This document shows positions 7,930-61,348 of a stretch of 64,000 nucleotides of DNA, piece after piece. How positions within the stretch are numbered: the first letter of the stretch is position 1; each line of letters opens with the position of its first letter. The DNA is from an uncultured Candidatus Saccharibacteria bacterium (lineage in GTDB: Bacteria; Patescibacteriota; Saccharimonadia; CAILAD01; BJGX01). The notes beneath the pieces are model-generated. The model saw only the letters and a list, made by a program, of their open reading frames with translations, was not told the DNA's origin and searched no databases. The stretch spans positions 141,531 through 205,530 of the forward strand of contig CAZSVP010000003.1 in NCBI GenBank assembly GCA_964610335.1, given 5' to 3'. Both the position numbers and the translations under genes were made by a program.

Positions 7930-7946
7930 TTTGTAGTTATACTACC

Positions 7947-8291: not shown

Positions 8292-8333
8292 TGTCTTTAT
8301 ACAGAATTCTAGTCAACTTCAATAAGCTGCTGA

Positions 8334-8379
8334 GTTGGTTCGAATCCAGCCCCCGGAGCAATAGTACTTATGCTTAAAG
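8334..8379 (+). repeat. tRNA 3'-end-like fragment (T-arm GTTGG-TTCGAAT-CCAGC + acceptor-like tail) fused to repeat CCCGGAGCAATAGTACTTATGCTTAAAG; att-like copy a
   Basis: Canonical T-loop GGTTCGAATCC with pairing stem but no matching 5' acceptor/D/anticodon arms upstream; sequence repeated imperfectly at 9176 and 9434. Confidence 0.55.
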
Positions 8380-8400
8380 ACCTGAAAAGGTCCTTTTGAT

Positions 8401-9177: not shown

Positions 9178-9224
9178 TTCTAACTTCAGTTACTACCCGG
9201 AGCCATAGTACTTATGCTTAAAAG
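9176..9224 (+). repeat. att-like repeat copy b (degenerate T-arm-like AGTTCTAACTTCAG + CCCGGAGCCATAGTACTTATGCTTAAAAG)
   Basis: 29-nt near-identity to copy a (27/29), preceded by degenerated T-loop-like segment. Confidence 0.55.
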
Positions 9225-9230
9225 GCCCAC

Positions 9231-9434
9231 GTGTTTCATTTTGTTATAATAACGAATATGAAAACAATACGATATATTGCTGTTGTTTGTAATGCTATTT
9301 TTGTAGCTTGGCTATTATTTAATGCAATTGATGAGGGTTTTCGTGCAGTAAATCGTGTAGAACTAGTCTCGATGATTAGTCTAATAGCGCTACTGTTGCT
9401 CAACATTATTCTTCTACTACATCGGCGTGCCTAA
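9231..9434 (+). CDS. small hydrophobic protein (2 predicted TM helices), AT-rich
   Basis: 67-aa ORF, ~33% GC, two hydrophobic stretches; lies inside the repeat-bounded islet. Confidence 0.35.
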   Translation: MFHFVIITNMKTIRYIAVVCNAIFVAWLLFNAIDEGFRAVNRVELVSMISLIALLLLNIILLLHRRA

Positions 9435-13124: not shown

Positions 13125-13131
13125 GTAGTAA

Positions 13132-15528
13132 GTGGGACTACGCGACTACTTACGCAAACGAGTATTTAGCAAAACCCCTGAGCCTCGCGGTAAGCACAAC
13201 AGGGGCAATAGCTCAGAGCTGCGGTTTGTTGTACAAAAGCATGCTGCTAGCCACTTACATTATGACTTTCGGCTGGAGCTCGATGGTGTACTTAAAAGCT
13301 GGGCCGTGCCCAAAGGAATTAGTCTCAATCCAAGCGAACACCACCTAGCGATTCAAACCGAAGATCACCCATTAGAGTACATCTCTTTTAAGGGCAAAAT
13401 ACCGGAAGGTAACTATGGTGCCGGTAAAGTAGAGATATACGATCATGGTACATATGAACCTCGCGCCTCGGTAGATGATAATGCCAAGGAAATCCGATCT
13501 GCCCTGCACAATGGTCACCTGACATTTATCCTTCATGGCGATAAGCTGAAGGGTGAGTTTGCACTTATTCGCAATGAACACTTTGCAAAGAATGGTTGGC
13601 TACTGATAAAGAAAGGTGATCAGTATGCCAAGCCACCAGGACCATACTACCTGCCCGACAAAGCCGATATGGATCCCGAAAAAGCCCTTTCGTCCTCGCC
13701 ACGGGTCAAGATGCCATCGCATATCAAACCAATGCTTGCAACACTGGTAGACAAGCCATTTGACGATGCTGGCTGGCTATACGAAGTCAAATGGGATGGC
13801 TATCGTGCACTCGCTTACAAACACAGCGGTAAGGTATCGCTTGAGTCACGCAACCAAAACGACTTTACTAGTTCATATCAAGAGATTACCGCAGCTGTTG
13901 CTAAGCTTAGACATGATGTCGTCTTGGATGGTGAAATGGTTGCAGTTGACAGCAATGGCCACCCGCATTTTGAATGGTTACAGAACTGGCGCACAGCACC
14001 GCAAGGCAAGTTGGTTTATTACGTGTTTGACTTACTATGGTGTGATGGCAAAGATTTACGCAAGCTGCCACTTAGAACTCGCCGATCAATATTGAGTAAC
14101 ATAATCCCCAAGGATTCTATTATCCGGCTTAGTGATGGGGTAGAGAACAAAGGCCTCAAATACTTCGAGCGAGCGGCCAAACTTGGCTTGGAGGGTATAG
14201 TTGCTAAAAGGTTAGATAGCACCTACCAAGAGAACGTTCGTGGTAAAAATTGGTTGAAGATCAAAACCCATATGCGACAAGAAGTTGTGATAGGTGGCTA
14301 CACAGAGCCACGCGGCAGTCGCTCTAGCCTTGGTTCATTATTGGTAGGCGTATATGTAGACAGTAAGTTTGTGTACTGTGGCCATGTCGGAACAGGTATG
14401 GACGAGTCAACACTCCAAGAATTGTATGCCAAATTGAGTAAGATTGAATCAAAATCCATGCCTTTTGATAATGAGCCAAAGTCAAACGAGACAGTACACT
14501 ATATCAAGCCAAAATACGTTTGCGAAGTAAAATTTGCCGAGTGGACTAGCAATGGTACTATGCGCCAGCCAGTTTACTTGGGTCTTAGACCCGACAAGAA
14601 GCCTCAACAAGTAGTTCGCGAGATTCCTACCAAAGCCAAGCAAGAATTTGAGCTTACACACCTCGATAAGGTGTTTTGGCCAGAGGGTAAGTTTACAAAA
14701 GGCGACCTACTAAAATACTACGAAAGTATTGCTGAGACACTGCTACCGTATCTAAACAACCGACCCCAGTCACTTCTGCGTCAACCAGATGGGTACAGAG
14801 GCCAAGCATTTTTCCAAAAAGATATATCGAAATTCGCGCCAGACTGGGCCAAAACTATATCTATTCATTCAGACTCATCAAACAAGGAGGTGGAGTATTT
14901 GATATGCAATGACCTGAAAACTTTGCAGTATATGGTACAGCTAGGCTGTATTGAGATCAATCCGTGGAACTCGCGCACCAAGCACTTGACCAAACCAGAC
15001 TGGGCAGTAGTGGATCTTGATCCTGAAGACATCAGTTTTGAAAAAGTCATTGAAGTCGCCAAGGTCGTACACAAGGTTTGTGAGGAGCTAAAAATTCCAT
15101 GCTACCCAAAAACTTCCGGCAAGACAGGTATCCACATATTTATTCCATTAGACGCAAAGTATAGTTACGATCAAGCCCGCCAGTTTGTTCAACTACTAGT
15201 AACAATTATTCACGAACGCACAAGCAAGATTACCAGTCTAGAGCGTAGTCCAGCGAAGCGCAAACACAAGATATACCTCGACTATTTGCAAAACAGCGAA
15301 GGCCAAACCCTTGCGTCCGCCTACTGTGTACGTCCAACTAAAGCCGCGAGTGTTTCAACACCACTACACTGGGATGAAGTGAGAGTTGGTCTTGACCCCA
15401 CAAAGTTTACTATCAAAACTACAGCAGCTCGTGTTAAGCGTGTAGGTGATCTCTGGAAACCTGTTCTGGGTGATGGAGTTGATTTAAAACAAGTATTGAG
15501 TAATCTAACAGGCATAACCAAGAAGTGA
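13132..15528 (+). CDS. ligD: ATP-dependent DNA ligase LigD (phosphoesterase-ligase-polymerase domains)
   Basis: PE domain (RFVVQKHAASHLHYDFRLE), ligase motif I EVKWDGYRA, C-terminal primase-polymerase domain (KTSGKTGIHIFIPL). Confidence 0.9.
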   Translation: MGLRDYLRKRVFSKTPEPRGKHNRGNSSELRFVVQKHAASHLHYDFRLELDGVLKSWAVPKGISLNPSEHHLAIQTEDHPLEYISFKGKIPEGNYGAGKVEIYDHGTYEPRASVDDNAKEIRSALHNGHLTFILHGDKLKGEFALIRNEHFAKNGWLLIKKGDQYAKPPGPYYLPDKADMDPEKALSSSPRVKMPSHIKPMLATLVDKPFDDAGWLYEVKWDGYRALAYKHSGKVSLESRNQNDFTSSYQEITAAVAKLRHDVVLDGEMVAVDSNGHPHFEWLQNWRTAPQGKLVYYVFDLLWCDGKDLRKLPLRTRRSILSNIIPKDSIIRLSDGVENKGLKYFERAAKLGLEGIVAKRLDSTYQENVRGKNWLKIKTHMRQEVVIGGYTEPRGSRSSLGSLLVGVYVDSKFVYCGHVGTGMDESTLQELYAKLSKIESKSMPFDNEPKSNETVHYIKPKYVCEVKFAEWTSNGTMRQPVYLGLRPDKKPQQVVREIPTKAKQEFELTHLDKVFWPEGKFTKGDLLKYYESIAETLLPYLNNRPQSLLRQPDGYRGQAFFQKDISKFAPDWAKTISIHSDSSNKEVEYLICNDLKTLQYMVQLGCIEINPWNSRTKHLTKPDWAVVDLDPEDISFEKVIEVAKVVHKVCEELKIPCYPKTSGKTGIHIFIPLDAKYSYDQARQFVQLLVTIIHERTSKITSLERSPAKRKHKIYLDYLQNSEGQTLASAYCVRPTKAASVSTPLHWDEVRVGLDPTKFTIKTTAARVKRVGDLWKPVLGDGVDLKQVLSNLTGITKK

Positions 15529-19517: not shown

Positions 19518-20557
19518 AAGTCAGCCTTCTTGGGCAGCTTCAACTCCATGTTGCCGGGCAGGGGAGTATCTGGCTCAGGATCGATACAAGCTTCGAGCTC
19601 GGCAACAATCTTCTTCTCATCAACATCTTGTCCGATAAACACGAGCTCGGTCTTGGGCTCGGCACTTTTTGGCCAATTGTCCCAAACTATCTCAGCCCGA
19701 ACTCCGACTAACTGGAATATATAGCGCCGCAGGTGGCCTTTGACATTAAAATCCAAGAATCCCTTAGCACGATATATGTTGGTAGGGATCTTGCGATTTG
19801 CAAACTGTTCAAATTTGCGCGGATCGAGTGGTTTGTCGCTGGTCCAAACGAACTGTTGATAGTGTTCGTGGATATGATCTTTGTGATCCGTAGTTTCATG
19901 ATCTGACTCGGTCGTAGTCGCAACTTGGCCGGAACCTGTCTTGTACAAATCAGTGTCGAGTACCAGGCGCACGTCGAGCTCACCTCGGACTGTTTCGATT
20001 ATGCGCGCTTTAGGATTAAACATACCGATCAGCTGATGGATCTCCTTGATCTTGGCTTTAGGCACCATATCGACCTTGTTGATTACCACAAAGTCGCTGA
20101 ATATTATTTGGTCGCGCGCGGTGTCATTGGCACTAGCATTCTTTTCCAAGTTCTCAGCGTCAAGTACTGTCACAATACTGTCTAGCCGGACTCGTTGGCC
20201 GAGAGTATCGCGCAAGGTAAGTGCTAAATCGCGTGGCTCGGCTAAGCCACTAGCCTCGATTAATATGTAGTCGATGTTGCTATTAGGGGTAATAAACTGA
20301 TCGATAGCTTCTTGGAGATCGAGAGTTTGCAAGCTGCAGCATATGCAGCCCGAGGTTAGTTCGAGCTTTTGGTCGGTTTGGCTTTTCACCAAACCAGCAT
20401 CGATGTTGATGTCGCCAAAATCATTGACCACCACACCAATGTTCATACCTTCGTTGTGGGTAAGGATGTAATTGAGTAGAGTGGTTTTGCCAGCACCCAA
20501 GAAGCCTTGAAGCACTGTGATGGGGATCTTGCGATATTGTATTTCTGGTTTGTTCAT
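19514..20557 (-). CDS. COG0523 (CobW/HypB/UreG-family) metallochaperone GTPase
   Basis: P-loop GFLGAGKTT, CICC metal-binding motif, C-terminal CobW_C-like domain with His-rich stretch (HETTDHKDHIHEH). Confidence 0.8.
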   Translation of the reverse strand: MNKPEIQYRKIPITVLQGFLGAGKTTLLNYILTHNEGMNIGVVVNDFGDINIDAGLVKSQTDQKLELTSGCICCSLQTLDLQEAIDQFITPNSNIDYILIEASGLAEPRDLALTLRDTLGQRVRLDSIVTVLDAENLEKNASANDTARDQIIFSDFVVINKVDMVPKAKIKEIHQLIGMFNPKARIIETVRGELDVRLVLDTDLYKTGSGQVATTTESDHETTDHKDHIHEHYQQFVWTSDKPLDPRKFEQFANRKIPTNIYRAKGFLDFNVKGHLRRYIFQLVGVRAEIVWDNWPKSAEPKTELVFIGQDVDEKKIVAELEACIDPEPDTPLPGNMELKLPKKADL

Positions 20558-31012: not shown

Positions 31013-31876
31013 ATGAACGAGAAATCAAATATACAAGAACTGTGTTTAAATAGCAAGGGCTATCCGGAACTTTTAGCCACTATAGCCGCACCACCCAAAA
31101 AATTATATCTGAGAGGCAGTATCAAAGAGCTGCCATTAATTGCAGTAGTAGGCACGCGAAAGCCCACTGAGTATGGTCGCAAACTGTGCTATCGTATTTG
31201 CTATGATCTAGCTAGTAGCGGGATTGGGATAGTAAGTGGCCTAGCTTATGGCATCGATGCCATAGCACATCAAGCCGCTCTCGATGCTCGTGGTTATACA
31301 ATAGCTGTACTAGGTAACGCAATAGACAGTATTTATCCTGCTGGTAACCAACATATAGCAGGCAATATTCTAGAATCTGCTGGGGCAATTGTCAGTGAGT
31401 ACGAGCCAGGCGCCAATACTCAGCGGTTCAACTTCCCAGCTCGTAATCGCATAATTGCTGGACTAAGTCTGGGAGTATTAATACCAGAAGCAGATGCAAA
31501 AAGCGGTAGTCTTATCACCGCCAACTTTGCCGTTCAAGAAAACCGCATGGTTATGGCAGTACCAGGTAGTATATTTAATCTACGTAGTGCTGGACCCAAT
31601 AATTTACTCAAAAGTGGTGCTAAGCCTGTGACTGATGCTACAGATGTGCTGGCCGAGTTTGAATTACGCAACCCAGCCCTGACACGCAAAGCCCCCAAGC
31701 CTGCTAGCGCTACTGAAGCACGTATAATTGAGCTTGTAGAAGATGGTACAAATACTACCGAAGAGTTACTACGCCAGCTAGAACTCACTAGCCCTGAACT
31801 TGCCCAAACCCTTAGCCTGATGGAGATCACTGGCAAACTTCGCAGCCTTGGCGCTGGGCAGTGGGTAGCTCGATAA
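31013..31876 (+). CDS. dprA: DNA processing protein A (Smf)
   Basis: DprA Rossmann core (VVGTRKPTEYG, GLAYGIDAIAHQAAL, NRIIAGLS) plus C-terminal winged helix. Confidence 0.85.
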   Translation: MNEKSNIQELCLNSKGYPELLATIAAPPKKLYLRGSIKELPLIAVVGTRKPTEYGRKLCYRICYDLASSGIGIVSGLAYGIDAIAHQAALDARGYTIAVLGNAIDSIYPAGNQHIAGNILESAGAIVSEYEPGANTQRFNFPARNRIIAGLSLGVLIPEADAKSGSLITANFAVQENRMVMAVPGSIFNLRSAGPNNLLKSGAKPVTDATDVLAEFELRNPALTRKAPKPASATEARIIELVEDGTNTTEELLRQLELTSPELAQTLSLMEITGKLRSLGAGQWVAR

Positions 31877-31878
31877 TA

Positions 31879-31907
31879 TTGATTGTTCGTATAAAAAGTT
31901 GTACTAT
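31879..31907 (+). promoter_or_regulatory. sigma70-like promoter copy 1 (TTGATT-N17-TACTAT) for high-GC ORF-A
   Basis: Hexamers at 31879-31884 and 31902-31907; part of a ~35-50 bp motif repeated at 32360 and 32962. Confidence 0.5.
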
Positions 31908-31944
31908 CATCTGGTCCATACACGATCCCGACGAAAGGCCAAGA

Positions 31945-32280
31945 ATGTTCACCACAAAAGTTGAGGAACTCTGTCTGAGAGGCGAAGGCAAGGTGTTGTG
32001 CCACGGCACTGAAGTCCTGGACATGTTCGGACTGACCTACTTCGAAGTCGACCGACACCGGTTAGACCCAGAAGCGCGTGACCTCCTGCAAGGCTTGCTC
32101 GGTACCAGTTCCGTCCGTGGCCTCAAGATCACCCAGAACTTCGGGTCGAAACCCAACTTCAAGGTTCGGGTGTGCTTCGACAGGGTTCCGATCGATCATC
32201 TGGTGTTTGCGTTCAACGAGATCGCTCAGATGATCCAGCACCACATGCCAGAACTCGCTGGCGCGCCCGGCAGCGCCTGA
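31945..32280 (+). CDS. hypothetical protein, high-GC foreign gene (ORF-A, 111 aa)
   Basis: RBS GAAAGG 6 nt upstream of ATG 31945; ~60% GC versus ~45% in dprA; own promoter and terminator; track ORF starts at GTG 31861 overlapping dprA. Confidence 0.5.
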   Translation: MFTTKVEELCLRGEGKVLCHGTEVLDMFGLTYFEVDRHRLDPEARDLLQGLLGTSSVRGLKITQNFGSKPNFKVRVCFDRVPIDHLVFAFNEIAQMIQHHMPELAGAPGSA

Positions 32281-32326
32281 ACCACCAGGTTGCTCTGCCT
32301 CTATCCCGCCCCCATCCGACACGATT

Positions 32327-32356
32327 CCGCTCTCGGAAGAGGGCGGTTTCGCATTT
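32327..32356 (+). terminator. intrinsic terminator after ORF-A
   Basis: CCGCTCTC-GGAA-GAGGGCGG hairpin followed by TTTCGCATTTAT. Confidence 0.6.
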
Positions 32357-32359
32357 ATA

Positions 32360-32388
32360 TTGATTATTTACGGCTAAAGTTGTATACT
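32360..32388 (+). promoter_or_regulatory. sigma70-like promoter copy 2 (TTGATT-N17-TATACT) for NDT-like gene
   Basis: Hexamers at 32360-32365 and 32383-32388; near-duplicate of copy 1 architecture. Confidence 0.5.
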
Positions 32389-32433
32389 TGCCCAGTTCTT
32401 TGAACATAATTCGTCCTCAACCAAGGAGATCCC

Positions 32434-32907
32434 GTGGACACACTTGATACCATGGTGGCTTATCGCCACACCGGAGTGCCAGAGGCCGAGCTGGCTGAGC
32501 TCATGGAGGCAGTCAAAGTGGCTCTTGACGCCACTGGCTGGAACTGGCACTGCACCTACTGGGAAGAGGGAAACTTCCGCTCCCAGGGAGCCGGCCGGCG
32601 CGAGATCATGGACCATGCTCGTGAACAGCTCGATCAGATCAATTTCCTGATCTGCATCGTCGACAGCCCGATCGACAGCCCCGGCATGGTCTGGGAGATG
32701 GGCTACTGCCGCGCCAAGAAAATACCAATCCTGGCCTTGGTGCGTGCTGGTTGCAGCAACACCTACGGTGCCGACATGGCCGACAAGGTGGCCGAGTACG
32801 GTGAACCCTGGCAGATCGCCACTATCCTGGAGGATGTGGTGCACCATGGCGGTGCGCTCAACTACATCGCACAAGCCGGGGTAGTCCTCTACGAGTTCGA
32901 GTCATAG
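32434..32907 (+). CDS. nucleoside 2-deoxyribosyltransferase-like (SLOG/NDT-DNPH1 family) protein, 157 aa, high GC
   Basis: Active-site region DSPGMVWEMGYCRAKKIPILAL matches NDT/DNPH1 D.G..fE.G.a.a.gKP pattern with candidate catalytic Glu; RBS AAGGAG; GTG start; ~60% GC. Confidence 0.6.
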   Translation: MDTLDTMVAYRHTGVPEAELAELMEAVKVALDATGWNWHCTYWEEGNFRSQGAGRREIMDHAREQLDQINFLICIVDSPIDSPGMVWEMGYCRAKKIPILALVRAGCSNTYGADMADKVAEYGEPWQIATILEDVVHHGGALNYIAQAGVVLYEFES

Positions 32908-33064: not shown

Positions 33065-35386
33065 ATGTCTAAAAACTTAGTAATAGTCGAATCACCAGCC
33101 AAAGCCAAGACAATTGAGAAATATCTTGGCACTGACTATCAGGTCCTCAGCTCGATGGGCCACATTCGCGATCTTCCCAAAAGTGGCATAGGCATAGATA
33201 TTGCCCATAATTTCAAACCTGAATATGAGATAAGCCCCGACAAAACTAAGACTGTCAGTGAGCTAAAGCGGGCCGCCAAAGGCAAAACCATTTGGCTAGC
33301 TACTGATGAAGACCGCGAAGGAGAGGCTATAAGCTGGCATCTGTGTTCAGCACTTGGCATCGATCCCAAAACTACCAAGCGTATCGTATTTCACGAGATC
33401 ACCAAGCCTGCTATTACTGAGGCCGTTAAATCACCACGCACAGTTGACCTAAATATGGTTGATGCCCAGCAAGCCCGACGTGTGCTTGACCGGCTAGTAG
33501 GCTACGAACTAAGTCCGGTCTTGTGGAAGAAAATTAAAACAGGCCTTAGCGCAGGTCGTGTGCAGTCAGTTGCTGTACGACTCATAGTAGAACGTGAGCG
33601 CGAAATAGAGCAATTTGCCGAAAAATCAGATTATAAGGTTACAGCTGAATTTTCTTCTAATAGTGGCGAGGTACTCAAGGCAGAGTTAAATACTAGATTC
33701 CCTGATAGCAAAACTGCTGAATCTTGGTTGAAAAAGGTAATTGGCAAGAACTTCGTACTCCAATCTGTCGAGAAAAAACCAGGTAAACGCAGCCCAGCTG
33801 CGCCATTTACTACCTCAACGCTTCAACAAGCCGCCTCGACTCGCTTAGGCTTCAGTGTGCGCCAAACTATGGTATTGGCCCAAAAACTCTATGAGGCAGG
33901 CCATATTACTTATATGCGTACTGATTCGGTCAGCCTTAGCGATCAAGCCCTCAAACAAGCTCGACAGGTTATTGAATCTGAATTTGGCAAAGATTTCTAC
34001 CTGGCGCGTCACTACAAGAACAAGTCCGCCAATGCCCAAGAGGCCCATGAGGCGATTCGACCAACAAACTTCGCAGTTGCTAAATGCGGTAATGAACCAG
34101 CCCAAATCAAACTTTACCAACTTATCCGCGCTCGTGCCCTTGGATCTCAAATGGCAGATGCCAAACTAGAGAAGACTGAAATGATCATAGTAACAGATGG
34201 TACTACAGAGAAGTTTGTTGCCAAAGGAGAGGTAATTGTGTTTGCCGGATTTCTACAAGCATATCCTAATTCTACAGGTAGAGATGACAGTATTCTACCT
34301 GATCTCAAATCTGGTGATCAGCTTAAGACTAATACAATCGTAGCCACCCAAACATATGCTCGACCATTAGCTCGCTATACTGAGGCCAGCCTGGTGCGCG
34401 AGCTCGAAAAGCGCGGCATTGGCCGACCAAGCACCTATGCACCAACCATATCCACCATCCAGACTCGTGAATACGTAACTAAATCTGAAGATATGGAAAA
34501 GCAGCGCGAGGTCACAATCCTAACCTTGCAATCTGGCAAGATCACAGTTGAGAATACCACTGAAAATTACGATACAGATCGAAACCGCCTTCGCCCAACA
34601 GATACTGGTACTGTGGTGACAGATTTTTTGGTTAAGTATTTCGCAGAAATCTTAGATTATGACTTTACCGCCAAGGTAGAGGCCGAATTTGATGATATTG
34701 CCAAAGGTGAAGAAAAGTGGCAAACCATGATAGCTGATTTTTACAAACCATTTCATAAGCTAATAGAGAGTAGTGAAGAAATCAGCCGACACGAAGCTAG
34801 CCAGGGAAGAATACTTGGAAAAGACCCAAAAAGTGGCAAGCCGGTGATAGCCAGGCTAGGCCGATATGGTGCCATGCTCCAGATAGGACAAGCTGAAGAT
34901 GAAGAAAAGCCTAAGTTCGCCCCTATGCCATCTGGCCGTAAGATAGGCGATGTTACACTTGAAGAAGCCCTGACCATGTTTAAACTACCAAGGGTAGTCG
35001 GGAAAACCGCCGAAAGTGAAGAGATTACTGCCAATATAGGACGATTTGGGCCTTACGTGAAGGTAGGTGACAGCTATGTGTCTATCAAGGACGAGGATCC
35101 ATTTAGTATCGATGAAGCAACTGCACGAAAGCTGATTATTGCCAAACGCAAAGCTGATGCCGAAAAGATTATTCAGAACTTCGAGGCAGAGAAGATACAG
35201 GTGTTGAATGGACGCTTTGGGCCCTATGTAACAGATGGCACCACCAATTCTAAAGTCCCCAAAGATCAAGACCCTAAGAAACTCAAACTCAAAGACTGCC
35301 AAGCTATGCTTGAGGAAGCACGTAACAAGCCGACTAAAGGTCGTCGATTTGCCCCAAAGGGTACCAAAAAAGCCACCAAAAAATAG
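33065..35386 (+). CDS. topA: DNA topoisomerase I
   Basis: TOPRIM N-terminus (LVIVESPAKAKTIEKYLG), active-site Tyr region, C-terminal Lys-rich tail; 773 aa. Confidence 0.9.
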   Translation: MSKNLVIVESPAKAKTIEKYLGTDYQVLSSMGHIRDLPKSGIGIDIAHNFKPEYEISPDKTKTVSELKRAAKGKTIWLATDEDREGEAISWHLCSALGIDPKTTKRIVFHEITKPAITEAVKSPRTVDLNMVDAQQARRVLDRLVGYELSPVLWKKIKTGLSAGRVQSVAVRLIVEREREIEQFAEKSDYKVTAEFSSNSGEVLKAELNTRFPDSKTAESWLKKVIGKNFVLQSVEKKPGKRSPAAPFTTSTLQQAASTRLGFSVRQTMVLAQKLYEAGHITYMRTDSVSLSDQALKQARQVIESEFGKDFYLARHYKNKSANAQEAHEAIRPTNFAVAKCGNEPAQIKLYQLIRARALGSQMADAKLEKTEMIIVTDGTTEKFVAKGEVIVFAGFLQAYPNSTGRDDSILPDLKSGDQLKTNTIVATQTYARPLARYTEASLVRELEKRGIGRPSTYAPTISTIQTREYVTKSEDMEKQREVTILTLQSGKITVENTTENYDTDRNRLRPTDTGTVVTDFLVKYFAEILDYDFTAKVEAEFDDIAKGEEKWQTMIADFYKPFHKLIESSEEISRHEASQGRILGKDPKSGKPVIARLGRYGAMLQIGQAEDEEKPKFAPMPSGRKIGDVTLEEALTMFKLPRVVGKTAESEEITANIGRFGPYVKVGDSYVSIKDEDPFSIDEATARKLIIAKRKADAEKIIQNFEAEKIQVLNGRFGPYVTDGTTNSKVPKDQDPKKLKLKDCQAMLEEARNKPTKGRRFAPKGTKKATKK

Positions 35387-36571: not shown

Positions 36572-39310
36572 ATGCAAGAATTTTTTTCAATTATCGCCAA
36601 TATTATCAACCTGCTTGGTACTGTTTTGTTCCGCTACTGGGGCTGGACTGTCGTAGCAGCTATTCTGGCGTATTTAATCTGGCAGAATCGGCGTAAAATC
36701 GAATATGTAAGTACCAGTGAGCACATACTTTTACAGATAATTGTGCCTAAGAACAACGAGCAAAAAGAGCTCAACGCCGAACAAATGTTTGCCGCTCTGC
36801 ATGGGATACTGCGCCCGAGCGCTGAAATACAAAAAGAAGGCAGTATCCAAGAACACATCAGTTTTGAAATAGCAGCACAAGGCAACAAGATACATTTCTA
36901 TGTGTGGACCCCAAAGCACCTCAAGTCATTTGTAGAAAGCCAGGTTTACGCACAGTATCCAACAGTTCAGATCTATGAAATGGACCAAGACTATGCAGTA
37001 ACCGCGCTGAACAACCGAGTACCATATAGCACAGATCTAGTTCTCACCAAAGACGAAATATTTCCTATCAAAACATTCCCTAGTTTTGAAGTAGATCCAC
37101 TAGCAGGCATGACCACGGCATTGGCCTCACTTAGTGAGCAAGAAGAAATGTGGATACAGGTACTATTGAGACCGACTGACGATAGTTGGCACAAAAAGTC
37201 ACTGAATTACGTTGAAGAGATCCGTACTGGCAAGAAGAATGTATCCCTTTCTCAACTGTTACTCGGCGACTGGAAAAAAAAGTTGGTACAGGCGCCATTT
37301 GCATTCTTGGGTGCCTTGTTTAACGCTGCCTTCAAACCTGTTGGTGGTGGCGACAAGAAAGATGAAAAGAAAGAAAAGAAGGAGCTTAGTCCAGGTACTA
37401 CTACCATGCTAACTGCTGTTGAAACTAAGGCCGAAAAGCTTGGTTATGAAACACGAATTCGAGCAATGTATCTTGGTACCAGCGACGACAACGCCAAAAC
37501 TCGTATACAAGCGTTGGTTGGTGGTTTTAAGCAGTTTAATACAATCAACCTCAATGGTTTCACCAACGATGGCATCCACGCTGGTGAAGAAGGGTTACGG
37601 GACTATCGAGCACGATTGTTCGACAGTAAAGGGTACGTGCTCAATATCGAAGAAGTAGCTAGTCTTTACCATTTGCCCCATGTCTCGGTTGAGACTCCTG
37701 GAGTTGCATATACCAATACCAAAGTGGGGGAGCCTCCAGCCAATCTGCCAACACAGCTCAACACACCACCCGAAGCCCTTAGCTTAATCGGCAGTACCAA
37801 TTTCCGACAAGCCAATATCAAGTTTGGTATCAAGCGCACTGATCGCAAACGTCATCTATACATAGTAGGTAAAAGTGGCGTAGGTAAGTCATTCTTGCTT
37901 GAGCTACTTGCAATTTCTGACCTATACCACAATCAAGGCTTTGCAGTAGTTGACCCACATGGTGACTTTGCCCAAAACATCATGAAGTATTTGCCTAAAG
38001 AGCGTATTGACGATGTTGTTTACTTCAACCCAGCTGACACTGAATTTCCTATTGGATTTAATCCAATGGAAGTCCAAGATGAATTCAGACGAAACAATAT
38101 AGCCTCTGAGATCATAGGTGTACTTAAGAAAATGTTTGGTGATAGCTGGGGACCACGCCTTGAACATATTCTTCGTTTTACACTACTGGCACTACTTGAG
38201 AGCCCTGATAGTACCATGCTAGGCATCACACGTATGCTTACCGATAAGAAATATCGCAATGAAGTAGTCAAAAACGTTACCGACCCTGTAGTAAAAGCCT
38301 TCTGGGTCAATGAGTTTGCCGCCTGGAACGACAAGTTTGCCTCTGAAGCTGTGGCTCCAGTATTGAACAAAGTCGGTGCATTTACGGCCAACCCACTAAT
38401 TCGTAATGTAATTGGTCAGACCAAGAGTACGTTTAATATACGTGAGATGATGGACCAAGGTAAGATCTTAATAGTTGATCTCAGCCGAGGCCGCATTGGT
38501 GAAGACAACGCAGGTATCTTAGGCGCATTACTAATTACCAAGATTCAACTCGATGCCATGAGTCGTGCTGACATAGGTGATATAGAAGCCCGTCGACCAT
38601 TCTATCTATATGTTGATGAATTTCAGAATTTTGCGACCGAAAGTTTTGCAGTTATTCTTTCTGAAGCTCGTAAATACGGCCTATTCCTCACTATTGCTAA
38701 CCAGTACATTGCCCAAATGCCGGAAGAAGTACGTGATGCCGTATTTGGTAACGTTGGTTCCATGATATCATTCCGCGTTGGCGCCGATGATGCCGACTAC
38801 CTTACCAAGTATTTTGAACCGGTATTCGAAGCTGCAGACCTTACCAATCTAGGTATACAAAACATCTATGTCACTATGAGTATAGATGGTGAAACCTCCC
38901 AGCCGTTCTCAGCCAAGACACTACACCGACCAGAGTCTCAGCAAGATCTGACAGCAACAATCATTGAGCACTCACGCCATCGCTACACCAAATCAAAAGC
39001 CGAGGTGGAAGCCGAGATAGTAGCCTGGAGCGGATTTAGTTCAGGAAGTGACGACTCTAAACAGTCAACTCACGATACTGGTGGCCACGACAAACCAACT
39101 GATCAGCCCAAAGAACCACTTATACCTGTGGTAGATCATAAACCGAACTTAATTGGCGTAGAGCCCAAAAAATATTCTGAGGAATACAAAAAACGCGCCC
39201 CTCGTGCACAAGGGCAAGGCTCGAACCGACAACAAAGCAGTAACAAAAACGAATCCGGCAAGAGCTCAAATAATCGTCGCAGACGGCCAAGAAACCGCAA
39301 TAGTAAGTAA
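36572..39310 (+). CDS. VirD4/TraG/TraD-like type IV coupling-protein-family ATPase (FtsK/HerA superfamily), 912 aa
   Basis: N-terminal TM helices, Walker A IVGKSGVGKS, Walker B-like YLYVDEFQNF, TIANQY motif; basic low-complexity C-terminal tail. Confidence 0.6.
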   Translation: MQEFFSIIANIINLLGTVLFRYWGWTVVAAILAYLIWQNRRKIEYVSTSEHILLQIIVPKNNEQKELNAEQMFAALHGILRPSAEIQKEGSIQEHISFEIAAQGNKIHFYVWTPKHLKSFVESQVYAQYPTVQIYEMDQDYAVTALNNRVPYSTDLVLTKDEIFPIKTFPSFEVDPLAGMTTALASLSEQEEMWIQVLLRPTDDSWHKKSLNYVEEIRTGKKNVSLSQLLLGDWKKKLVQAPFAFLGALFNAAFKPVGGGDKKDEKKEKKELSPGTTTMLTAVETKAEKLGYETRIRAMYLGTSDDNAKTRIQALVGGFKQFNTINLNGFTNDGIHAGEEGLRDYRARLFDSKGYVLNIEEVASLYHLPHVSVETPGVAYTNTKVGEPPANLPTQLNTPPEALSLIGSTNFRQANIKFGIKRTDRKRHLYIVGKSGVGKSFLLELLAISDLYHNQGFAVVDPHGDFAQNIMKYLPKERIDDVVYFNPADTEFPIGFNPMEVQDEFRRNNIASEIIGVLKKMFGDSWGPRLEHILRFTLLALLESPDSTMLGITRMLTDKKYRNEVVKNVTDPVVKAFWVNEFAAWNDKFASEAVAPVLNKVGAFTANPLIRNVIGQTKSTFNIREMMDQGKILIVDLSRGRIGEDNAGILGALLITKIQLDAMSRADIGDIEARRPFYLYVDEFQNFATESFAVILSEARKYGLFLTIANQYIAQMPEEVRDAVFGNVGSMISFRVGADDADYLTKYFEPVFEAADLTNLGIQNIYVTMSIDGETSQPFSAKTLHRPESQQDLTATIIEHSRHRYTKSKAEVEAEIVAWSGFSSGSDDSKQSTHDTGGHDKPTDQPKEPLIPVVDHKPNLIGVEPKKYSEEYKKRAPRAQGQGSNRQQSSNKNESGKSSNNRRRRPRNRNSK

Positions 39311-56359: not shown

Positions 56360-57100
56360 TTATTGTCTAGCTCGCAAATACTGATCCCAGTGCTGATACA
56401 ATTTGCCAGTTGCAAATAGATCTTGAGCATTGTACTTGGCAATTTCGAGATAGCGACCTTCACGATATGCAGGATCGACTTGACTACCATCAATGCCAGC
56501 GACTTTTGGACTAGTAATTCCAAATGCTCGGCACCAACGATGTAGGCTACCTTTGTACATAGCTCCACCAAAAAATGTCAGTTGGTCGAACAAATCTATG
56601 TGTTGGACCGATCGAACTCCAGAAGAATTGTAGCGATTGCCTACCAGATCACGGGTCGGTCGGATACCAAGAATAGCACTACGTATCATCATGTATGGCA
56701 CGTCGGCTCGGCGCCCAAAGAAGCTTATAAACTCGTCGGCAGTTTCGGCCAAGGCCCAAAATTTTGTCAACATCTCGGCCTCGGTCATGCTGACATATTT
56801 AACACCTTCTTCTTCGAGCTCTTCAGTATCCTTACCCTCAGTATCATAGTAAACAGCGCCCTGCTCGCTCTCTATGTCGTATAAGCCGATAGCAATTATT
56901 TTACCTGTCAATGGGCTAAATACTAGATTGCGTTTAAGCTCTTTGAGAGCTTGCTCATAGCGCTCTGGTTCTATTTCGGGGTCGGGCAATTTTTTGGTGA
57001 GATCTTTTTTGGTAGCTTCATCAAAGTCATCAAAGTTCTCCCCCACCATCTCTATATCAAATACTAATCGTTTTTTATGCATTGACACATTATAACACAA
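56360..57100 (-). CDS. predicted DEDD/PolB-like 3'-5' exonuclease (RNase H fold)
   Basis: VFDIE (Exo I), later YNAQD (Exo III YxxxD); start may be internal Met (MHKKRL, 57082). Confidence 0.45.
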   Translation of the reverse strand: MCYNVSMHKKRLVFDIEMVGENFDDFDEATKKDLTKKLPDPEIEPERYEQALKELKRNLVFSPLTGKIIAIGLYDIESEQGAVYYDTEGKDTEELEEEGVKYVSMTEAEMLTKFWALAETADEFISFFGRRADVPYMMIRSAILGIRPTRDLVGNRYNSSGVRSVQHIDLFDQLTFFGGAMYKGSLHRWCRAFGITSPKVAGIDGSQVDPAYREGRYLEIAKYNAQDLFATGKLYQHWDQYLRARQ

Positions 57101-57198
57101 TCTGATCTGGTTCTTGATTGAATAATACTTCTACTTATTGTATAATTGCCAACCAACATTGCGTTCGTATTTCTACTGGCCGACCATAAGGAGTCGCA

Positions 57199-57915
57199 AT
57201 GAGCAACACCACAACTGACAGCTTTGGAGAGTTGGTAGTGCGACGAGCCGATCAGCTGCGCCAGCGCGGCGATGCCGGCGGTGCTTGCCGGGATTTCAAC
57301 AAGGCCTACAACTTGCTGCGTAGCGAAGGCAAGGCCTGCGACCCCGTCATGCGTGACTGCTTGCATATGTGGGGAGTTGCGCTCTGCAGCAAAGGCAACC
57401 CGGCCGAGGCATTGAGCAAGTTCCGCCAAGCAATTCAGTTGTCCATCGACATCGGTGACCAGCCAAGTCGCATGGCCATGGGCAACATCATGCGTGATGA
57501 AGCCAAGGCTCAGATGCTGCTCGGCGAGCTCGATCGTGCCGAAGAGTGTCTCATCAGCTCACAACAGATTCTCAAGCCAGAGACCGAATGGGATCAGACT
57601 GCGCTACAAGGATTGGCCAACACCATCGGATTCCAAGGCCGTCTCGAAGTGTACCGTCACAATCTCGGTCTAGCTCTGCAATATCTACGCGAAGCTGATC
57701 GCCTGCTAGGCGCGATCGGAGCCGATCAACCCCGACTGTACAACCTGCTGGTGTTGTCTCGCACAGCTCACATGGCAGGTATGGCCGAAGCTGCTGGACA
57801 TGCTCGTGCAGCTTGGCCACTGGCCAAAAGGTATGGCGGCCGTAGCCATCGCATCCGAGCAATGCTGCTGATGCTCCCGATCGCCTGGCGGCTCGAAGCT
57901 CGCATGAGCTCGTAG
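57199..57915 (+). CDS. TPR-like hypothetical protein, high GC
   Basis: Helical repeat composition; ~60% GC; first gene of high-GC island. Confidence 0.45.
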   Translation: MSNTTTDSFGELVVRRADQLRQRGDAGGACRDFNKAYNLLRSEGKACDPVMRDCLHMWGVALCSKGNPAEALSKFRQAIQLSIDIGDQPSRMAMGNIMRDEAKAQMLLGELDRAEECLISSQQILKPETEWDQTALQGLANTIGFQGRLEVYRHNLGLALQYLREADRLLGAIGADQPRLYNLLVLSRTAHMAGMAEAAGHARAAWPLAKRYGGRSHRIRAMLLMLPIAWRLEARMSS

Positions 57916-58065
57916 CACCCAAGAGTGCTTTTACCCGTCCCCAACGAACGTCCCTGACATTTGTTGGGGACGTTCGTGTTTTTGGAGATGATTTTAATTC
58001 AATAATTGCTTGCCGGAGTGCGGAAGTATGATCACTCACACCTCCGCACCCCGAAGTTCACCCCC

Positions 58066-59496
58066 TCAGAGGATCTCGCCAGGGCTGTAGCGAGCTGCCT
58101 CTGGGTACTTGGCCATCACCGGCTCGATCGAGCGCACGAAGTTGCCCACCTGCGCTACCGCTACACCGGTCATCTCGATCGGATTGGCCAATGCTTCGCG
58201 CAGATCGGCCAGCTCGACGCACTGCATGTTGGGATCAGCCGCTATCCGTTCCAGCAGATCGTTGGGCAGACCCCCAACTTCTCGCTGTGCCATCTTGAGT
58301 GCCAAGGCATGCTCCTTGATGACCTCGTGGGCCTTCTCACGACCCATGCCGGCACGAACCGCGGCCATCAACAGCTTGGTAGTGCCCAGGTACGGCAGTT
58401 GCTCGCGCAACTCGGTCTGAATCATGGCCGGAAAGAATCCGAACTCATCGAGCACCGTGAGCCAGGTCTGGTAGAGCCCATCGAGGGCGAAGAACGAGTC
58501 CGGAAGCACCACGCGGCGAATCACGCTGCAGCTCACGTCGCCCTCGAACCAGGTGTCGCCAGCCAGCTCGTTGGCCATGGTGACATGACCGCGCAGCGTG
58601 CACTGCAGCGCACGGATGCGCTCACAGCTACGAGAGTTTTCCTTGTGCGGCATGGCGCTGCTACCGGTCTGGCCAGGTTTGAAACCCTCGCTAGCCAAGC
58701 CCAGACCCGACATCAACCGAATCATCTGAGCAAAGTTGCCGGCTGGCGCTGCCAGTAGCAATAGCAGCTCGACCACCTCGGAGTCGTAGCTACGTGGATA
58801 GACCTGCCCCACCGAGTTCATCGACTCGGCAAAGCCGAGATGCTCGGCAATCCGCCGTTCCAGCTCCACCACGTCATCTGGGTTGCTCAGCAGATCCAAC
58901 TGATCCTGCTGAGTACCAACCGGACCCTTGATACCACGCAACTGGTAGTGCTCGATCACATACTCGAGCTTGTCCAGGAAGTGCAGCAGCTCCTCGCCGA
59001 TGGTGGCGATTCGCTTGCCCACCGTGGTGGGCTGAGCTGGCACGAAGTGACTGCGTCCGGCGATCACCACACCAACGTAGTTGGTGGCTGACTCACCCAA
59101 GCGAGCCAGCGCTGCCACCACACGGATGCGGATCAGCTTGAGACTCCGCAGCACCTGCATCTGCTCGACGTTGTCGGTCAGGTCACGGCTGGTCATACCC
59201 TTGTGCAGGTGCTCATGGCCAGCCAGCGCGCAGAACTCCTCGATCCGCGCCTTCACGTCGTGGCGGGTGCGGCGCTCGCGAGTGGCGATGGACTCGAGAT
59301 CCACCTGATCGATGACGGCTTCGTAGGCCTCGATCACGCCATCGGGCACATCCACACCCAAATTCTTCTGGGCGCGCAGTACGGCCAGCCAGAGCTCGCG
59401 CTCCATGATCACCTTCTGCCGTTCACCCCAAACCTCACGCACCTCCTCGGAGGCGTAGCGCATGGCCAGGACATTGCTGATTTCAGTGATGGCCAC
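58066..59496 (-). CDS. purB: adenylosuccinate lyase
   Basis: Fumarate-lyase signature GSSAMPHKEN; 476 aa; high GC. Confidence 0.85.
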   Translation of the reverse strand: MAITEISNVLAMRYASEEVREVWGERQKVIMERELWLAVLRAQKNLGVDVPDGVIEAYEAVIDQVDLESIATRERRTRHDVKARIEEFCALAGHEHLHKGMTSRDLTDNVEQMQVLRSLKLIRIRVVAALARLGESATNYVGVVIAGRSHFVPAQPTTVGKRIATIGEELLHFLDKLEYVIEHYQLRGIKGPVGTQQDQLDLLSNPDDVVELERRIAEHLGFAESMNSVGQVYPRSYDSEVVELLLLLAAPAGNFAQMIRLMSGLGLASEGFKPGQTGSSAMPHKENSRSCERIRALQCTLRGHVTMANELAGDTWFEGDVSCSVIRRVVLPDSFFALDGLYQTWLTVLDEFGFFPAMIQTELREQLPYLGTTKLLMAAVRAGMGREKAHEVIKEHALALKMAQREVGGLPNDLLERIAADPNMQCVELADLREALANPIEMTGVAVAQVGNFVRSIEPVMAKYPEAARYSPGEIL

Positions 59497-59654
59497 TGTG
59501 GCCTCCTCTTTGTCAATGCCTACAATAAGTAGACGGTACGAACAACAAAAGCGGCATCATGCCGCCTTGTACATTAGTATATGAGTATTGCTAGTCCAGA
59601 TCAAATTTGGTAAACTCACCGAGACCTCGACAACTGAATAGAAAGGCAGTCGTC

Positions 59655-61025
59655 ATGACGCCAACCAAACCAATCCTGCCCGTCAATGCTCGCATCGTGG
59701 TAGTCGGCAATGGTGGCCGCGAGGCCGCATTGGCTCGCCGACTTCGTCAAGACAGCCCGGAACGCGTGGTACATGTGGTGCCAGGCCGTGAGGGTTGCAT
59801 CCTTGGCTCCGAACCGCTTGATGGACGAAGCTTGCTCGACGTTTGTCTGAACCTCGAAGCTGATCTGTACGTGATCGGACCTGAAGCCCCATTGGTCGAC
59901 GGCCTGGCCGACGACTTGCGCAAGCAAGACAAGCTGGTGATCGGCCCTGGTGCCGACGGTGCCCAGCTCGAGGGCAGCAAGATCTGGATGAAGCAGCTGC
60001 TCGACGATGCAGGTGTGCCGACTGCCGCCTGGCAGGAGGGCGGCTTCGCCGAGATCGAAGACCTGCTGGAGTTCATCAACTACCTCGGCGGCAGCGCAGT
60101 AGTCAAGACCGACTACCTGGCTGCTGGCAAAGGTGTGGGGGTGTTTCACAACGACGCCGACGCCGCTGGTCGCGATGCCATACAGAAGACCGGCCCGCTC
60201 GAGTCAGGGCGCCGCGTGGTGGTCGAAGAAGTGATGGAAGGCGAAGAACTCTCAATGTTCTTCCTATGTGATGGTCAGCGTGCCGTCTTCTGCGGCTCAG
60301 CCCAGGACTACAAGTACCTAATCAAGGATGGTGTGAGCTACATGACCGGCGGTGTCGGCAGCTATTCACCCGTCGAGTGGCATACGCCCAAGCTGATCGA
60401 CATGGTAACCACCAACATCGCGCAACCGACGCTCAAGGCCTTACAGGCACGCGGCATCGACTACCGCGGCTTCCTGTTCTGCGGGCTGATGTTGACGCAG
60501 GACGGACCCAAGGTGCTGGAGTACAACATCCGCTTCGGAGATCCGGAGGCGCAGGCGGTGCTGCCACGCATCATCGGCGACTTCGGCCAGATGCTCTACG
60601 AAGCCGCCCATGGCCAGCTCACCAGCCCGGTGCAGCTCGACGATCGTGCTGCAGTGTGTGTGGTGGCCTGTGGTCGCGACTACCCGGCCGCCAGCCAGCT
60701 CGACGCTCTGATCAGCTGGCAAGCCGGTGTCGATTACGACGGCGAGCACGCCTACCGCCTACATGCCGGCACCCGCGAGGCGCCTCATGCCATGATCGCC
60801 ACCGATGGTGGTCGGGTGCTCAACTTCGTCGGTCTTGGCAGTCGTGTGTCGACAGCCCGGCGTCGTGCCTACAAGCTGGCACGCTCCGTCGAGTGGGATG
60901 GCATGGTGCTGCCCAACTACATCGCAGCCGAAGCGGCTCTCATCTCTGGTGATGAAGCACAGGCACAAAAGCAAGAGATGGCACAACGACGAGCAGCGCT
61001 AGCAACCAAAATCGATGCCGACTGA
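59655..61025 (+). CDS. purD: phosphoribosylamine--glycine ligase
   Basis: ARIVVVGNGGREAALARRL (PurD N-terminus), ATP-grasp core, C-terminal GGRVLNFVGLG; RBS GAAAGG before ATG 59655 (track ORF starts 59607). Confidence 0.8.
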   Translation: MTPTKPILPVNARIVVVGNGGREAALARRLRQDSPERVVHVVPGREGCILGSEPLDGRSLLDVCLNLEADLYVIGPEAPLVDGLADDLRKQDKLVIGPGADGAQLEGSKIWMKQLLDDAGVPTAAWQEGGFAEIEDLLEFINYLGGSAVVKTDYLAAGKGVGVFHNDADAAGRDAIQKTGPLESGRRVVVEEVMEGEELSMFFLCDGQRAVFCGSAQDYKYLIKDGVSYMTGGVGSYSPVEWHTPKLIDMVTTNIAQPTLKALQARGIDYRGFLFCGLMLTQDGPKVLEYNIRFGDPEAQAVLPRIIGDFGQMLYEAAHGQLTSPVQLDDRAAVCVVACGRDYPAASQLDALISWQAGVDYDGEHAYRLHAGTREAPHAMIATDGGRVLNFVGLGSRVSTARRRAYKLARSVEWDGMVLPNYIAAEAALISGDEAQAQKQEMAQRRAALATKIDAD

Positions 61026-61102
61026 GCAAGTCGAGCAGTAGGCCGAATGAGCCTTCAACGAGAGTCTTTGACTTCTATGTTGGAGGCTCTTGTTGTAATT
61101 AT

Positions 61103-61348
61103 TTACTTGGTTGGTTTAGTTTGGGCTGCATAATTGATCTGTTCTATAAAGTCACCTATCCACGGTACCCCACCCAGGTAGCGTAAAGCCAAACTAAGTA
61201 ACACTATAAATACCGCTACACCAATCACACCGCCAATACCACGCCAGAATCCTATCCACAGATTTAACTTCATGAGTTTCTTCTTGTTGTGTGTGAGTTC
61301 TACCAGTCTTTGTAATGCAACTGCTTCCGATGTCTTGGGATCTTTCAT
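61103..61348 (-). CDS. small membrane protein, hypothetical
   Basis: 81 aa with two hydrophobic helices. Confidence 0.4.
   Translation of the reverse strand: MKDPKTSEAVALQRLVELTHNKKKLMKLNLWIGFWRGIGGVIGVAVFIVLLSLALRYLGGVPWIGDFIEQINYAAQTKPTK

Follow-up and report, generated by a model that had tools for sequence, protein, structure and literature searches.

A GC-rich purB/purD-like locus with gene-by-gene allele replacement in freshwater Saccharimonadia

Genes can reportedly be displaced in place by distant homologs, a process termed xenologous gene displacement in situ and said to have been described for mosaic operons by Omelchenko et al. in 2003. Transformable bacteria also carry hypervariable loci whose alleles are exchanged by recombination, such as the pneumococcal cps locus (dexB-aliA) and the mosaic pbp genes. 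Horizontally acquired genomic islands are the subject of an amelioration model, reportedly that of Lawrence and Ochman from 1997. Here, we analyze a locus that shares features with each of these systems and departs from all of them: a GC-rich island of approximately 3.9 kb in a 64-kb stretch of DNA from an uncultured Candidatus Saccharibacteria bacterium (contig CAZSVP010000003.1, positions 141,531-205,530). We refer to this whole stretch as the window and give positions in its coordinates. The island encodes a tetratricopeptide repeat (TPR) protein, the adenylosuccinate lyase PurB, and a PurD-like ligase. We assign a probability of roughly 0.6 to the interpretation that the purB/PurD-like pair is a long-resident module of freshwater Saccharimonadia, swapped and re-supplied by recombination.

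As in xenologous displacement, distant homologs are found at the same position and phylogeny is incongruent with synteny; purB and purD have each been replaced independently, and at one related locus the purB slot is filled by another member of the Lyase_1 family. In contrast to such displacement, the variation here is a standing polymorphism of a single species-level population in which breakpoints have been mapped and mosaics found, and the replacing alleles appear to derive from a lineage-specific GC-rich pool and not from identifiable foreign phyla. A classical acquired island likewise displays an abrupt deviation in GC content, a patchy distribution, and point substitutions that shift composition toward that of the host at a neutral pace. 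Of the hallmarks of a mobile island, however, only atypical composition and patchy distribution are found at this locus; integrase or transposase, tRNA target or att site, and direct repeats are not, our searches identified no donor, and, unlike under simple amelioration, the deviation persists across lineages with saturated synonymous sites. Whereas the cps and pbp loci serve surface or drug-target functions and are under diversifying selection, the cargo here comprises two purine enzymes that evolve under purifying selection, and its base composition sets it apart from the genome. The likeness lies in conserved flanks that serve as recombination arms, divergent alleles at a single site in conspecifics, intragenic mosaics, and membership in a naturally competent group of organisms (PMC10633639).

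The island spans 57,199-61,025. In a 300-nt profile, GC content rises from 0.38-0.48 to 0.56-0.67 across approximately 57,200-61,050 and then returns to 0.40-0.46, and the profile of GC at third codon positions (GC3) agrees, in line with a first-pass annotation, made from the sequence alone, that had described an island of about 3.9 kb with abrupt edges. Its three genes are a TPR gene (57,199-57,915, plus strand; GC 0.583, GC3 0.64), purB (58,066-59,496, minus strand; GC 0.614, GC3 0.77), and the purD open reading frame (ORF; 59,607-61,025, plus strand; GC 0.612, GC3 0.70). These values (58-61% GC, GC3 0.64-0.77) compare with approximately 45% GC and a GC3 of approximately 0.43 for the genome; the remaining 60 or so ORFs of the window have GC of about 0.34-0.58 and GC3 of 0.25-0.66, typically about 0.43. 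First and second codon positions (GC1 and GC2) are likewise elevated in all three island genes. The GC-richness is uneven, in that the purB-purD spacer (59,497-59,654) is AT-rich. In the rest of the window, only one 1-kb bin exceeds 0.50 GC (32-33 kb, 0.56). The gene identities proposed by the first-pass annotation also stand (Pfam TPR_2; Lyase_1 and ADSL_C; GARS_N, GARS_A, and GARS_C; TIGR00928 and TIGR00877 both passed), as do its suggestion of a Saccharibacteria host and its observation that the window contains no other pur genes, which Pfam scans of the other large window ORFs did not detect.

Gene-by-gene replacement of purB and purD

We denote the genome of the window W and the related loci and genomes used for comparison by L numbers. 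Within one species-level population, whose flanks are 93-100% identical, purD alleles share only 54-59% identity and purB alleles 61%. L134 matches W at 99-100% in the flanks and at 99% in both the TPR protein and PurB, yet its PurD is 54% identical. In L009, the corresponding values are 96-100% (flanks), 98% (TPR), 97% (PurB), and 59% (PurD). The reverse pattern is found in L132, in which PurD is 86% identical to that of W and PurB only 61%, with flanks at 93-99% (85% for the DUF5665 protein) and the TPR protein at 96%; the L132 PurB is closest, at 65%, to the allele of the distant L007. L136 and L006 provide a further case, their flanks being 96-99% identical and their PurD sequences merely 82%.

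Sliding identity profiles resolve the boundaries of these replacements. The purB tract extends over 57,920-59,570, with identity between W and L132 collapsing from approximately 57,920, and the purD tract extends from 59,631 to approximately 61,040, with identity to L134 and L009 recovering from approximately 61,040-61,100. Between the two tracts lies an AT-rich spacer core of about 60 bp (59,571-59,630) that is 97-100% conserved in W, L134, L132, and L009, compared to 27-80% in the adjacent coding sequence, and that is partly conserved as far as L006 and L007. Some exchanges fall within genes: L134 and L009 have a common sequence over the first ~360 nt of purD but separate at approximately 59,990, marking an intragenic crossover, and the alignments reveal further PurD mosaics at the protein level and a purB mosaic among close strains. 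Replacement has affected purB and purD one gene at a time, the breakpoints lying at the spacer core and the gene ends.

Natural competence and homologous recombination with arms of approximately 1 kb have been shown experimentally in Saccharibacteria (PMC10633639), and the window encodes dprA (31,013-31,876). Together, these point to transformation followed by homologous recombination as the mechanism of exchange. The locus offers a natural means of observing homologous recombination in a Patescibacteria population that is uncultivated, and the finding of two metabolic enzymes with such deep allelic polymorphism inside one species of uncultivated epibiont is noteworthy in itself.

Identity and relatives of the encoded proteins

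The purB product (476 aa) scores 366.8 bits against TIGR00928, above the cut-off of 326.2 (the L011 allele scores 378.3), contains domains PF00206 and PF10397, and carries the signature loop GSSAMPHKEN in its translation. Each of the eight Saccharibacteria alleles retains all 23 columns that are universally invariant in PurB (at least 97% across 111 diverse homologs), and we therefore regard these as genuine adenylosuccinate lyases; dN/dS values of 0.06-0.10 indicate purifying selection. The same alleles deviate at 21-32 of 205 Actinomycetota-invariant columns. Among 5.8 billion proteins, the neighbors of the W PurB belong to its own lineage at 97% and 86% identity, after which values drop to approximately 62%, a level that comprises many Actinomycetota classes and one Saccharibacteria metagenome-assembled genome (MAG). 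An exact look-up of the W sequence returned no match. In neighbor-joining trees built from corrected p-distances with 200 bootstraps, Saccharibacteria and Actinomycetota-type PurBs form one clade (90%), within which the Actinomycetota sequences make up a monophyletic group that contains no Saccharibacteria allele (98%). The alleles of the W clade, L007, and L132 group together (94%), and that of L132 pairs with an allele from a distant Saccharibacterium (86%). The protein thus appears to be of the Actinomycetota type, sister to Actinomycetota PurBs and not nested within them. Most plausibly, it would convert adenylosuccinate to AMP, or SAICAR to AICAR if other steps are encoded elsewhere in the genome.

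Translation of purD likely starts at the ATG at 59,655, downstream of an AAAGG Shine-Dalgarno-like site within the ORF that opens at 59,607, giving a product of 456 aa that belongs to allele group A. Like canonical PurD (E. coli 1GSO, Aquifex 2YW2, human GARS 2QK4), it has the ATP-grasp architecture GARS_N/A/C, all three domains being found, and passes TIGR00877, although narrowly for a 5'-truncated W query (313 bits versus 288; the L009 allele reaches 333). The alleles form a Saccharibacteria-only clade (95%, neighbor-joining) whose branching order mirrors the flank species tree. Identity is 52-63% between Saccharibacteria groups and 45-53% to any outsider, whereas outsiders (two Actinomycetota classes and Verrucomicrobia) are 60-67% identical among themselves; the nearest named outside sequences are mostly from Acidimicrobiia or Actinomycetota. 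A scan of metagenome contigs with the Saccharibacteria PurD alignment was dominated by universal motifs (MTGGVGSY, NIR[FL]GDPE) and yielded a single relevant locus, L052, with an L006-type allele.

Unlike in canonical PurD, near-universal motifs have been remodeled, with 17-29 of 132 outsider-invariant columns changed. In all alleles, GPNTGGMG has become xxMTGGVG, QDHKR has become QDYK[Y/I], the B-loop DGLAAGK has become DYLA[A/G]GK (Gly to Tyr), and the C-terminal RxDI has become PxYI or HPGI; alleles of groups A and D in addition show GGREAA or GGREQA in place of GGREHA. The core glycine, Mg, and ATP ligands are kept (equivalents of Asp212, Lys214, Arg287, and Glu292, with E-x-N; the Arg of GGRE; QD.K; YNIRFGDPE), following the residue roles assigned to GAR synthetase (PMC8880213). 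Equivalents of Arg220 and Asn229, which contact ATP phosphates in human GARS (PMC2978367), are substituted. This combination of shared derived motif changes and retained core ligands indicates a distinct PurD-like subfamily. Constraint is weaker than for PurB (dN/dS 0.14 within an allele group), and null alleles circulate: in an L006-like population, two independent samples carry a nonsense purD (TGG to TAG, W147*; L140 5,189-6,457 and L142 3,295-4,563) that has just two further nucleotide differences from the intact allele. A further departure from the canonical setting is that we found no purF, purN, or purT in the 64-kb window or in the 10-kb flanks of related loci. Some strains, those in which the nonsense allele circulates, can dispense with the PurD-like enzyme, whose substrate is uncertain.

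The 3' end of purD and the spacer downstream of it vary the most, even between W and L001 (identity 0.24-0.64). At 60,940-61,025, the W gene encodes a unique C-terminal tail of approximately 29 aa (ALISGDEAQAQKQEMAQRRAALATKIDAD) that other group-A alleles lack. In L010 (3,832-4,355) and L011 (9,476-10,000), the purB-purD spacer is enlarged to approximately 520 bp, in which a GGTTGGTGCCCATC...CGGGCTCA-type repeat unit occurs several times, along with a 72-aa ORF in L011. These repeats may represent a small repetitive or palindromic element.

The TPR protein (238 aa; Pfam TPR_2) is an orphan, matching only two clusters among the 5.8 billion proteins, both from its own lineage (98% and 58% identity). 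Its AlphaFold model (pLDDT 89.7) is an all-helical solenoid, for which the best matching folds are LGN/Pins- and Rap-type TPR domains. The gene is under purifying constraint (dN/dS 0.05-0.2) and adjoins the purB/purD pair in W's sub-lineage. Twelve Acidimicrobiia/Actinomycetota-like contigs, recovered in the metagenome contig scan, also carry linked purD and purB, in tandem there and head-to-head in Saccharibacteria. The resemblance to this Actinomycetota pair thus consists of membership in one PurB clade and the linkage of the two genes; what distinguishes the Saccharibacteria pair is its orientation and the position of its PurB alleles outside the Actinomycetota crown. Taken together, the PurB and PurD phylogenies, the orphan TPR protein, and the purD-purB linkage suggest an ancient tie to an Actinomycetota-type pair and not a recent import from a host.

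Probable long residence, persistent GC-richness, and rival explanations

A search anchored on the gene left of the island, which encodes a PolB-like 3'-5' exonuclease (Exo, PF10108; 56,360-57,082, minus strand), identified the host as a member of the freshwater Saccharimonadia (Saccharibacteria). Every taxon-labeled entry among the 40 loci recovered is assigned to Saccharibacteria, Saccharimonadia, or Patescibacteria, lakes being a frequent source; among species-representative genomes, none exceeds 74% Exo identity to W. The same island and flanks occur in the close relatives L001-L005, L009, L132, L134/135, and L147. Exo is 100% identical to W in L001, L009, and L134, in which the DUF5665-side right flank is 96-99% identical, and it falls to 87% in L006 and 73% in L010 and L011. 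The more distant lineage of L006 and L137-146 also carries the island, with flank proteins 61-90% identical to W and saturated synonymous sites. Further out, L010, L011, and L014 (Exo 72-74% and GlyRS 68% identical to W) contain a GC-rich block of small ORF, purB, and purD at the same location, in the order DEAD helicase, TreT, ROK, purD, purB, small ORF, Exo. The block retains its composition throughout: 0.61-0.63 GC versus flanks of 0.44-0.52 in L006, 0.58-0.60 versus 0.40-0.44 in L010, 0.55-0.60 versus 0.37-0.44 in L011, and approximately 0.6 in L014. A distant Saccharibacteria MAG, L007 (GCA_016191105.1), has the order DEAD, purD, purB, likewise head-to-head.

In contrast, 18 species representatives display a clean DEAD-Exo junction without the island (gap of approximately 40-155 bp). 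A flank species tree based on four proteins places all island-bearing genomes in one clade (85%), within which island-free genomes are nested, namely L018 (sister to the island-bearing L014, 90%) and the L012-L022 group. Ancestral presence followed by at least two en-bloc deletions is the simplest account of this nesting, and on parsimony grounds we infer that the module was in the clade ancestor and was later lost at least twice.

Two of these loci have further peculiarities. In L014, the purB slot (7,874-9,328) holds a GC-rich Lyase_1-family gene that is not purB: its product is approximately 25% identical to PurB, falls below the TIGR00928 cut-off (250.7 versus 326.2), and scores also on 3-carboxymuconate cycloisomerase and other lyase models. 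In L007, whose genome is 49% GC, the composition of purD is native-like (GC3 0.47) and that of purB GC-rich, and purH occurs in two GC-rich pieces about 15 kb apart (GC3 0.72-0.82), one encoding the AICARFT part (3,695-4,690, 331 aa) and the other MGS and the start of AICARFT (19,745-20,509, 254 aa).

To follow the flux of substitutions, we polarized third-position singletons in W, L001, and L009 by majority rule and called them clustered when at least four from the same lineage fell within ±30 nt, and isolated otherwise. Isolated island changes run GC to AT versus AT to GC at 43:13, where flank per-site rates predict 38:10, so mutation appears to wear down island GC at a neutral pace, and nothing indicates codon selection. 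Clustered island changes run at 28:36 (isolated versus clustered, Fisher p = 3.6e-4), and recombination tracts restore the island's GC. The flanks show no such difference (86:80 isolated, 140:118 clustered; p = 0.69); since flank tracts lack a bias from AT to GC, GC-rich donor alleles explain the pattern better than a general conversion bias does. Between W and L006, synonymous sites are near saturation for purB and flanks alike. Going by the isolated-change rates, the GC3 excess should decay by more than 80% over each saturated branch and so be mostly gone since this split, yet both lineages remain at approximately 0.77, which would require re-supply or later replacement. Two earlier results were set aside. 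A purB dS apparently below that of the flanks (NG86, 1.03) was dismissed after the codon-usage-aware test gave near saturation, and a count of 35:11 polarized with L006 was withdrawn, since a saturated GC-rich outgroup favors G/C as the ancestral state (pass rates 0.53 versus 0.25, as composition predicts).

We propose that the head-to-head purB/PurD-like pair, arranged around a conserved AT-rich promoter spacer, was present in the clade ancestor and lost in some lineages, and that its alleles would be exchanged by natural transformation and homologous recombination. The ancestry of the pair would lie in an ancient tie to the purD-purB linkage of Actinomycetota-type genomes and not in recent host-to-epibiont transfer. 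The GC-richness of the pair would persist through continued import, by recombination, from a pool of GC-rich alleles that are less ameliorated. Saccharibacteria have been described as lacking de novo nucleotide synthesis (PMC10633639), and we found nothing specific in the literature on horizontal transfer of purine genes in this group; a purB/PurD-like module that is retained, lost, and re-assorted would show which purine steps some environmental epibionts keep.

Several points weigh against this proposal. Searching 5.8 billion proteins did not uncover a reservoir of GC-rich alleles, no PurB allele type having a relative above approximately 62-65% identity beyond its own lineage, so the source-sink model presupposes a source that was not seen. 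In neighbor-joining trees with long Saccharibacteria branches, monophyly of all Saccharibacteria PurBs has a bootstrap of only 33%. The flux analysis draws on three genomes, majority-rule polarization, and an ad hoc clustering rule. Ancestral presence with losses is a parsimony argument, to which three independent gains at one hot spot are an alternative, and transformation was demonstrated in a cultivated oral or soil-type Saccharibacterium of another lineage. The functional reading is weak, the pur inventory covering 64 kb.

The first-pass annotation had advanced a different history, piecemeal horizontal acquisition of nucleotide-metabolism genes (purB and a lone purD among them) from a high-GC donor, with an actinobacterial host as a speculative candidate. 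As a rival explanation, purB, purD, and the TPR gene would have been acquired recently from such a donor, plausibly the actinobacterial host. The sudden shift in GC and GC3, with GC1 and GC2 elevated as well, speaks for such an import, as do the outside relatives (the nearest named ones of PurB are all from Actinomycetota, those of PurD mostly so), the purD-purB linkage in Acidimicrobiia/Actinomycetota-like contigs, the life of cultivated Saccharibacteria on Actinobacteria (PMC10633639), and isolated substitutions that show amelioration under way. However, the best outside identities are approximately 62% for PurB and 52% for PurD, and best-hit and phylogenetic comparisons revealed no close donor lineage: Actinomycetota PurBs exclude all Saccharibacteria alleles, PurD forms a Saccharibacteria-only clade with synapomorphic motif changes, and the TPR protein has no donor-side homolog. 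Moreover, genomes with flanks that have reached synonymous saturation against W carry the island at an identical site and with its high GC content preserved, and no integrase, tRNA, or flanking repeat accompanies it. Synteny across the whole Saccharimonadia clade runs counter to recent acquisition, and the supposedly lone purD is half of a conserved head-to-head pair, found even in L007. We consequently consider recent import improbable; what survives of the idea is a compositionally foreign block with an Actinomycetota-type PurB, and what does not is a recent, piecemeal acquisition by this organism from its host. The case is a caution for inferring horizontal gene transfer, in that a GC island with "actinobacterial" best hits in an epibiont of Actinobacteria can mimic recent host-to-symbiont transfer and yet be an old, lineage-specific locus, its foreign composition kept up, on our reading, by the exchange of alleles. 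Slightly more improbable, in our assessment, is the opposite extreme of one ancient acquisition or shared ancestry followed by strictly vertical descent, with fast protein evolution and very slow amelioration. The PurD tree that mirrors the flank species tree, the shared synteny, a net flux in the island from GC to AT, and a GC3 that is lower in D-group alleles (0.64-0.68) and native-like in the L007 purD would all fit. Vertical descent is contradicted, however, by PurD differences of 46% on flanks that are 99-100% identical and PurB differences of 39% on flanks that are 93-99% identical, together with sharp breakpoints and intragenic mosaics. The grouping of the L132 PurB with that of a distant Saccharibacterium and the expected decay of GC3 argue in the same direction. 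A chimeric assembly or bin joining Saccharibacteria DNA to that of a GC-rich organism is suggested by composition that switches abruptly at gene boundaries and by the metagenomic nature of all data, but it is exceedingly improbable: both junctions are identical in more than 15 contigs and assemblies from different runs and assemblers (Logan, ENA, JGI, NCBI), the internal spacer is AT-rich and conserved, and the island genes are under purifying selection along with the flanks.

Two other possibilities concern why the alleles are GC-rich and diverse. A locus-specific force could keep the genes GC-rich in situ: gene conversion with a GC bias at a recombination hot spot, or selection, favoring either codons that end in G or C or a high GC content of the DNA or RNA. 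This would account for the GC-richness of every gene in the slot regardless of family (TPR, small ORFs, the L014 lyase), for its persistence across deep divergences, for the enrichment of AT-to-GC changes in clustered over isolated positions, and for a per-site AT-to-GC rate in the island that is twice that of the flanks, with an implied equilibrium GC3 of approximately 0.66. We consider it unlikely, given that isolated island changes fit neutral flank rates, that recombination tracts in the flanks show no comparable bias, that the L007 purD is native-like, and that GC-rich donor alleles are a simpler account of the tract bias. Also unlikely, though a little less so, is an ancient multi-allelic polymorphism maintained because the enzymes face a variable antagonist or partner, with alleles supplied by a hidden GC-rich reservoir or biased by recombination, and with a non-canonical role for the PurD-like protein. 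Tentative candidates for the partner would be host-specific metabolite supply, inhibitors from the host or phage, or an interaction via the TPR protein; we speculate, at the same low level of confidence, that the PurD-like enzyme might run its reaction in reverse on host glycinamide ribonucleotide to yield ATP, glycine, and ribose-5-phosphate, or might ligate a different amine. If so, the locus would be a host-adaptation cassette and not a biosynthetic remnant, and selected allele diversity would point to an unrecognized layer of metabolic specificity between host and epibiont.

Borders of the island and other features of the window

The AT-rich left border of the island contains a promoter-like sequence upstream of the TPR gene (TTGAAT-17-TATAAT, 57,118-57,146, plus strand), a pattern match from a consensus scan. 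Between the convergent TPR and purB genes, a pattern scan detected a hairpin with a T-run (57,936-57,977) that is likely a terminator and coincides with the left boundary of the purB replacement tract. The spacer separating purB and purD appears to be a divergent promoter region, with a minus-strand promoter-like site at 59,604-59,576. Between this site and the purB start codon, the purB leader contains a terminator-like hairpin with a U-run (59,548-59,568, minus strand), the stem of which is conserved among alleles while the loop varies in length. The fold of the whole leader is no better than that of shuffled sequences (z = -0.6) and has no Rfam match. A further hairpin (61,056-61,095), between the convergent purD and DUF5665 genes, lies where the purD replacement tract ends on the right. 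The DUF5665 gene (61,103-61,348, minus strand; Pfam) begins the native right flank, with a GC3 of approximately 0.42-0.45; a 164-aa gene of unknown identity and a cupin gene come next. Rfam searches of 57,050-61,200 returned no family at E ≤ 1, and PADLOC found no defense-system match for the TPR protein, the small ORFs, or the neighboring genes. The only tRNA in the window is located at 8.2 kb, the island borders lack significant repeats, and no mobility gene is present among the neighbors.

Other large ORFs in the window are ordinary housekeeping genes, encoding GltX, NrdAB, Ku and LigD, ABC transporters, ScpAB, Der, Pth, DprA, TopA, the dcw cluster, GlyRS, RecO, SOD, and AhpC. A second GC-rich patch (31,861-32,907; approximately 0.54-0.58 GC) lies between dprA and topA (33,065-35,386) and may be another exchangeable GC-rich cassette. 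It includes an ORF at 31,861-32,280 with no family match and one at 32,434-32,907 (plus strand), which the first-pass annotation had called NDT-like. That gene is real, but its assignment is marginal, the PF05014 match (26.2 bits, E = 9.6e-6) falling below the family cut-off of 28.8. The lowest-GC stretch of the window (8,001-9,177; 0.36) contains tRNA-Glu(CTC) at 8,217-8,291 followed by an ORF at 8,401-9,177 (GC 0.34, GC3 0.25) without a Pfam match, and may be an AT-rich insertion beside the tRNA. Two further findings are notable for a reduced epibiont genome: a non-homologous end-joining pair of Ku and a full-length LigD with phosphoesterase, ligase, and primase/polymerase domains (12,342-15,528), and a 912-aa VirD4/TrwB/HerA-like ATPase (36,572-39,310) whose gene adjoins that of a sigma-70 region-4/HARE-HTH protein.

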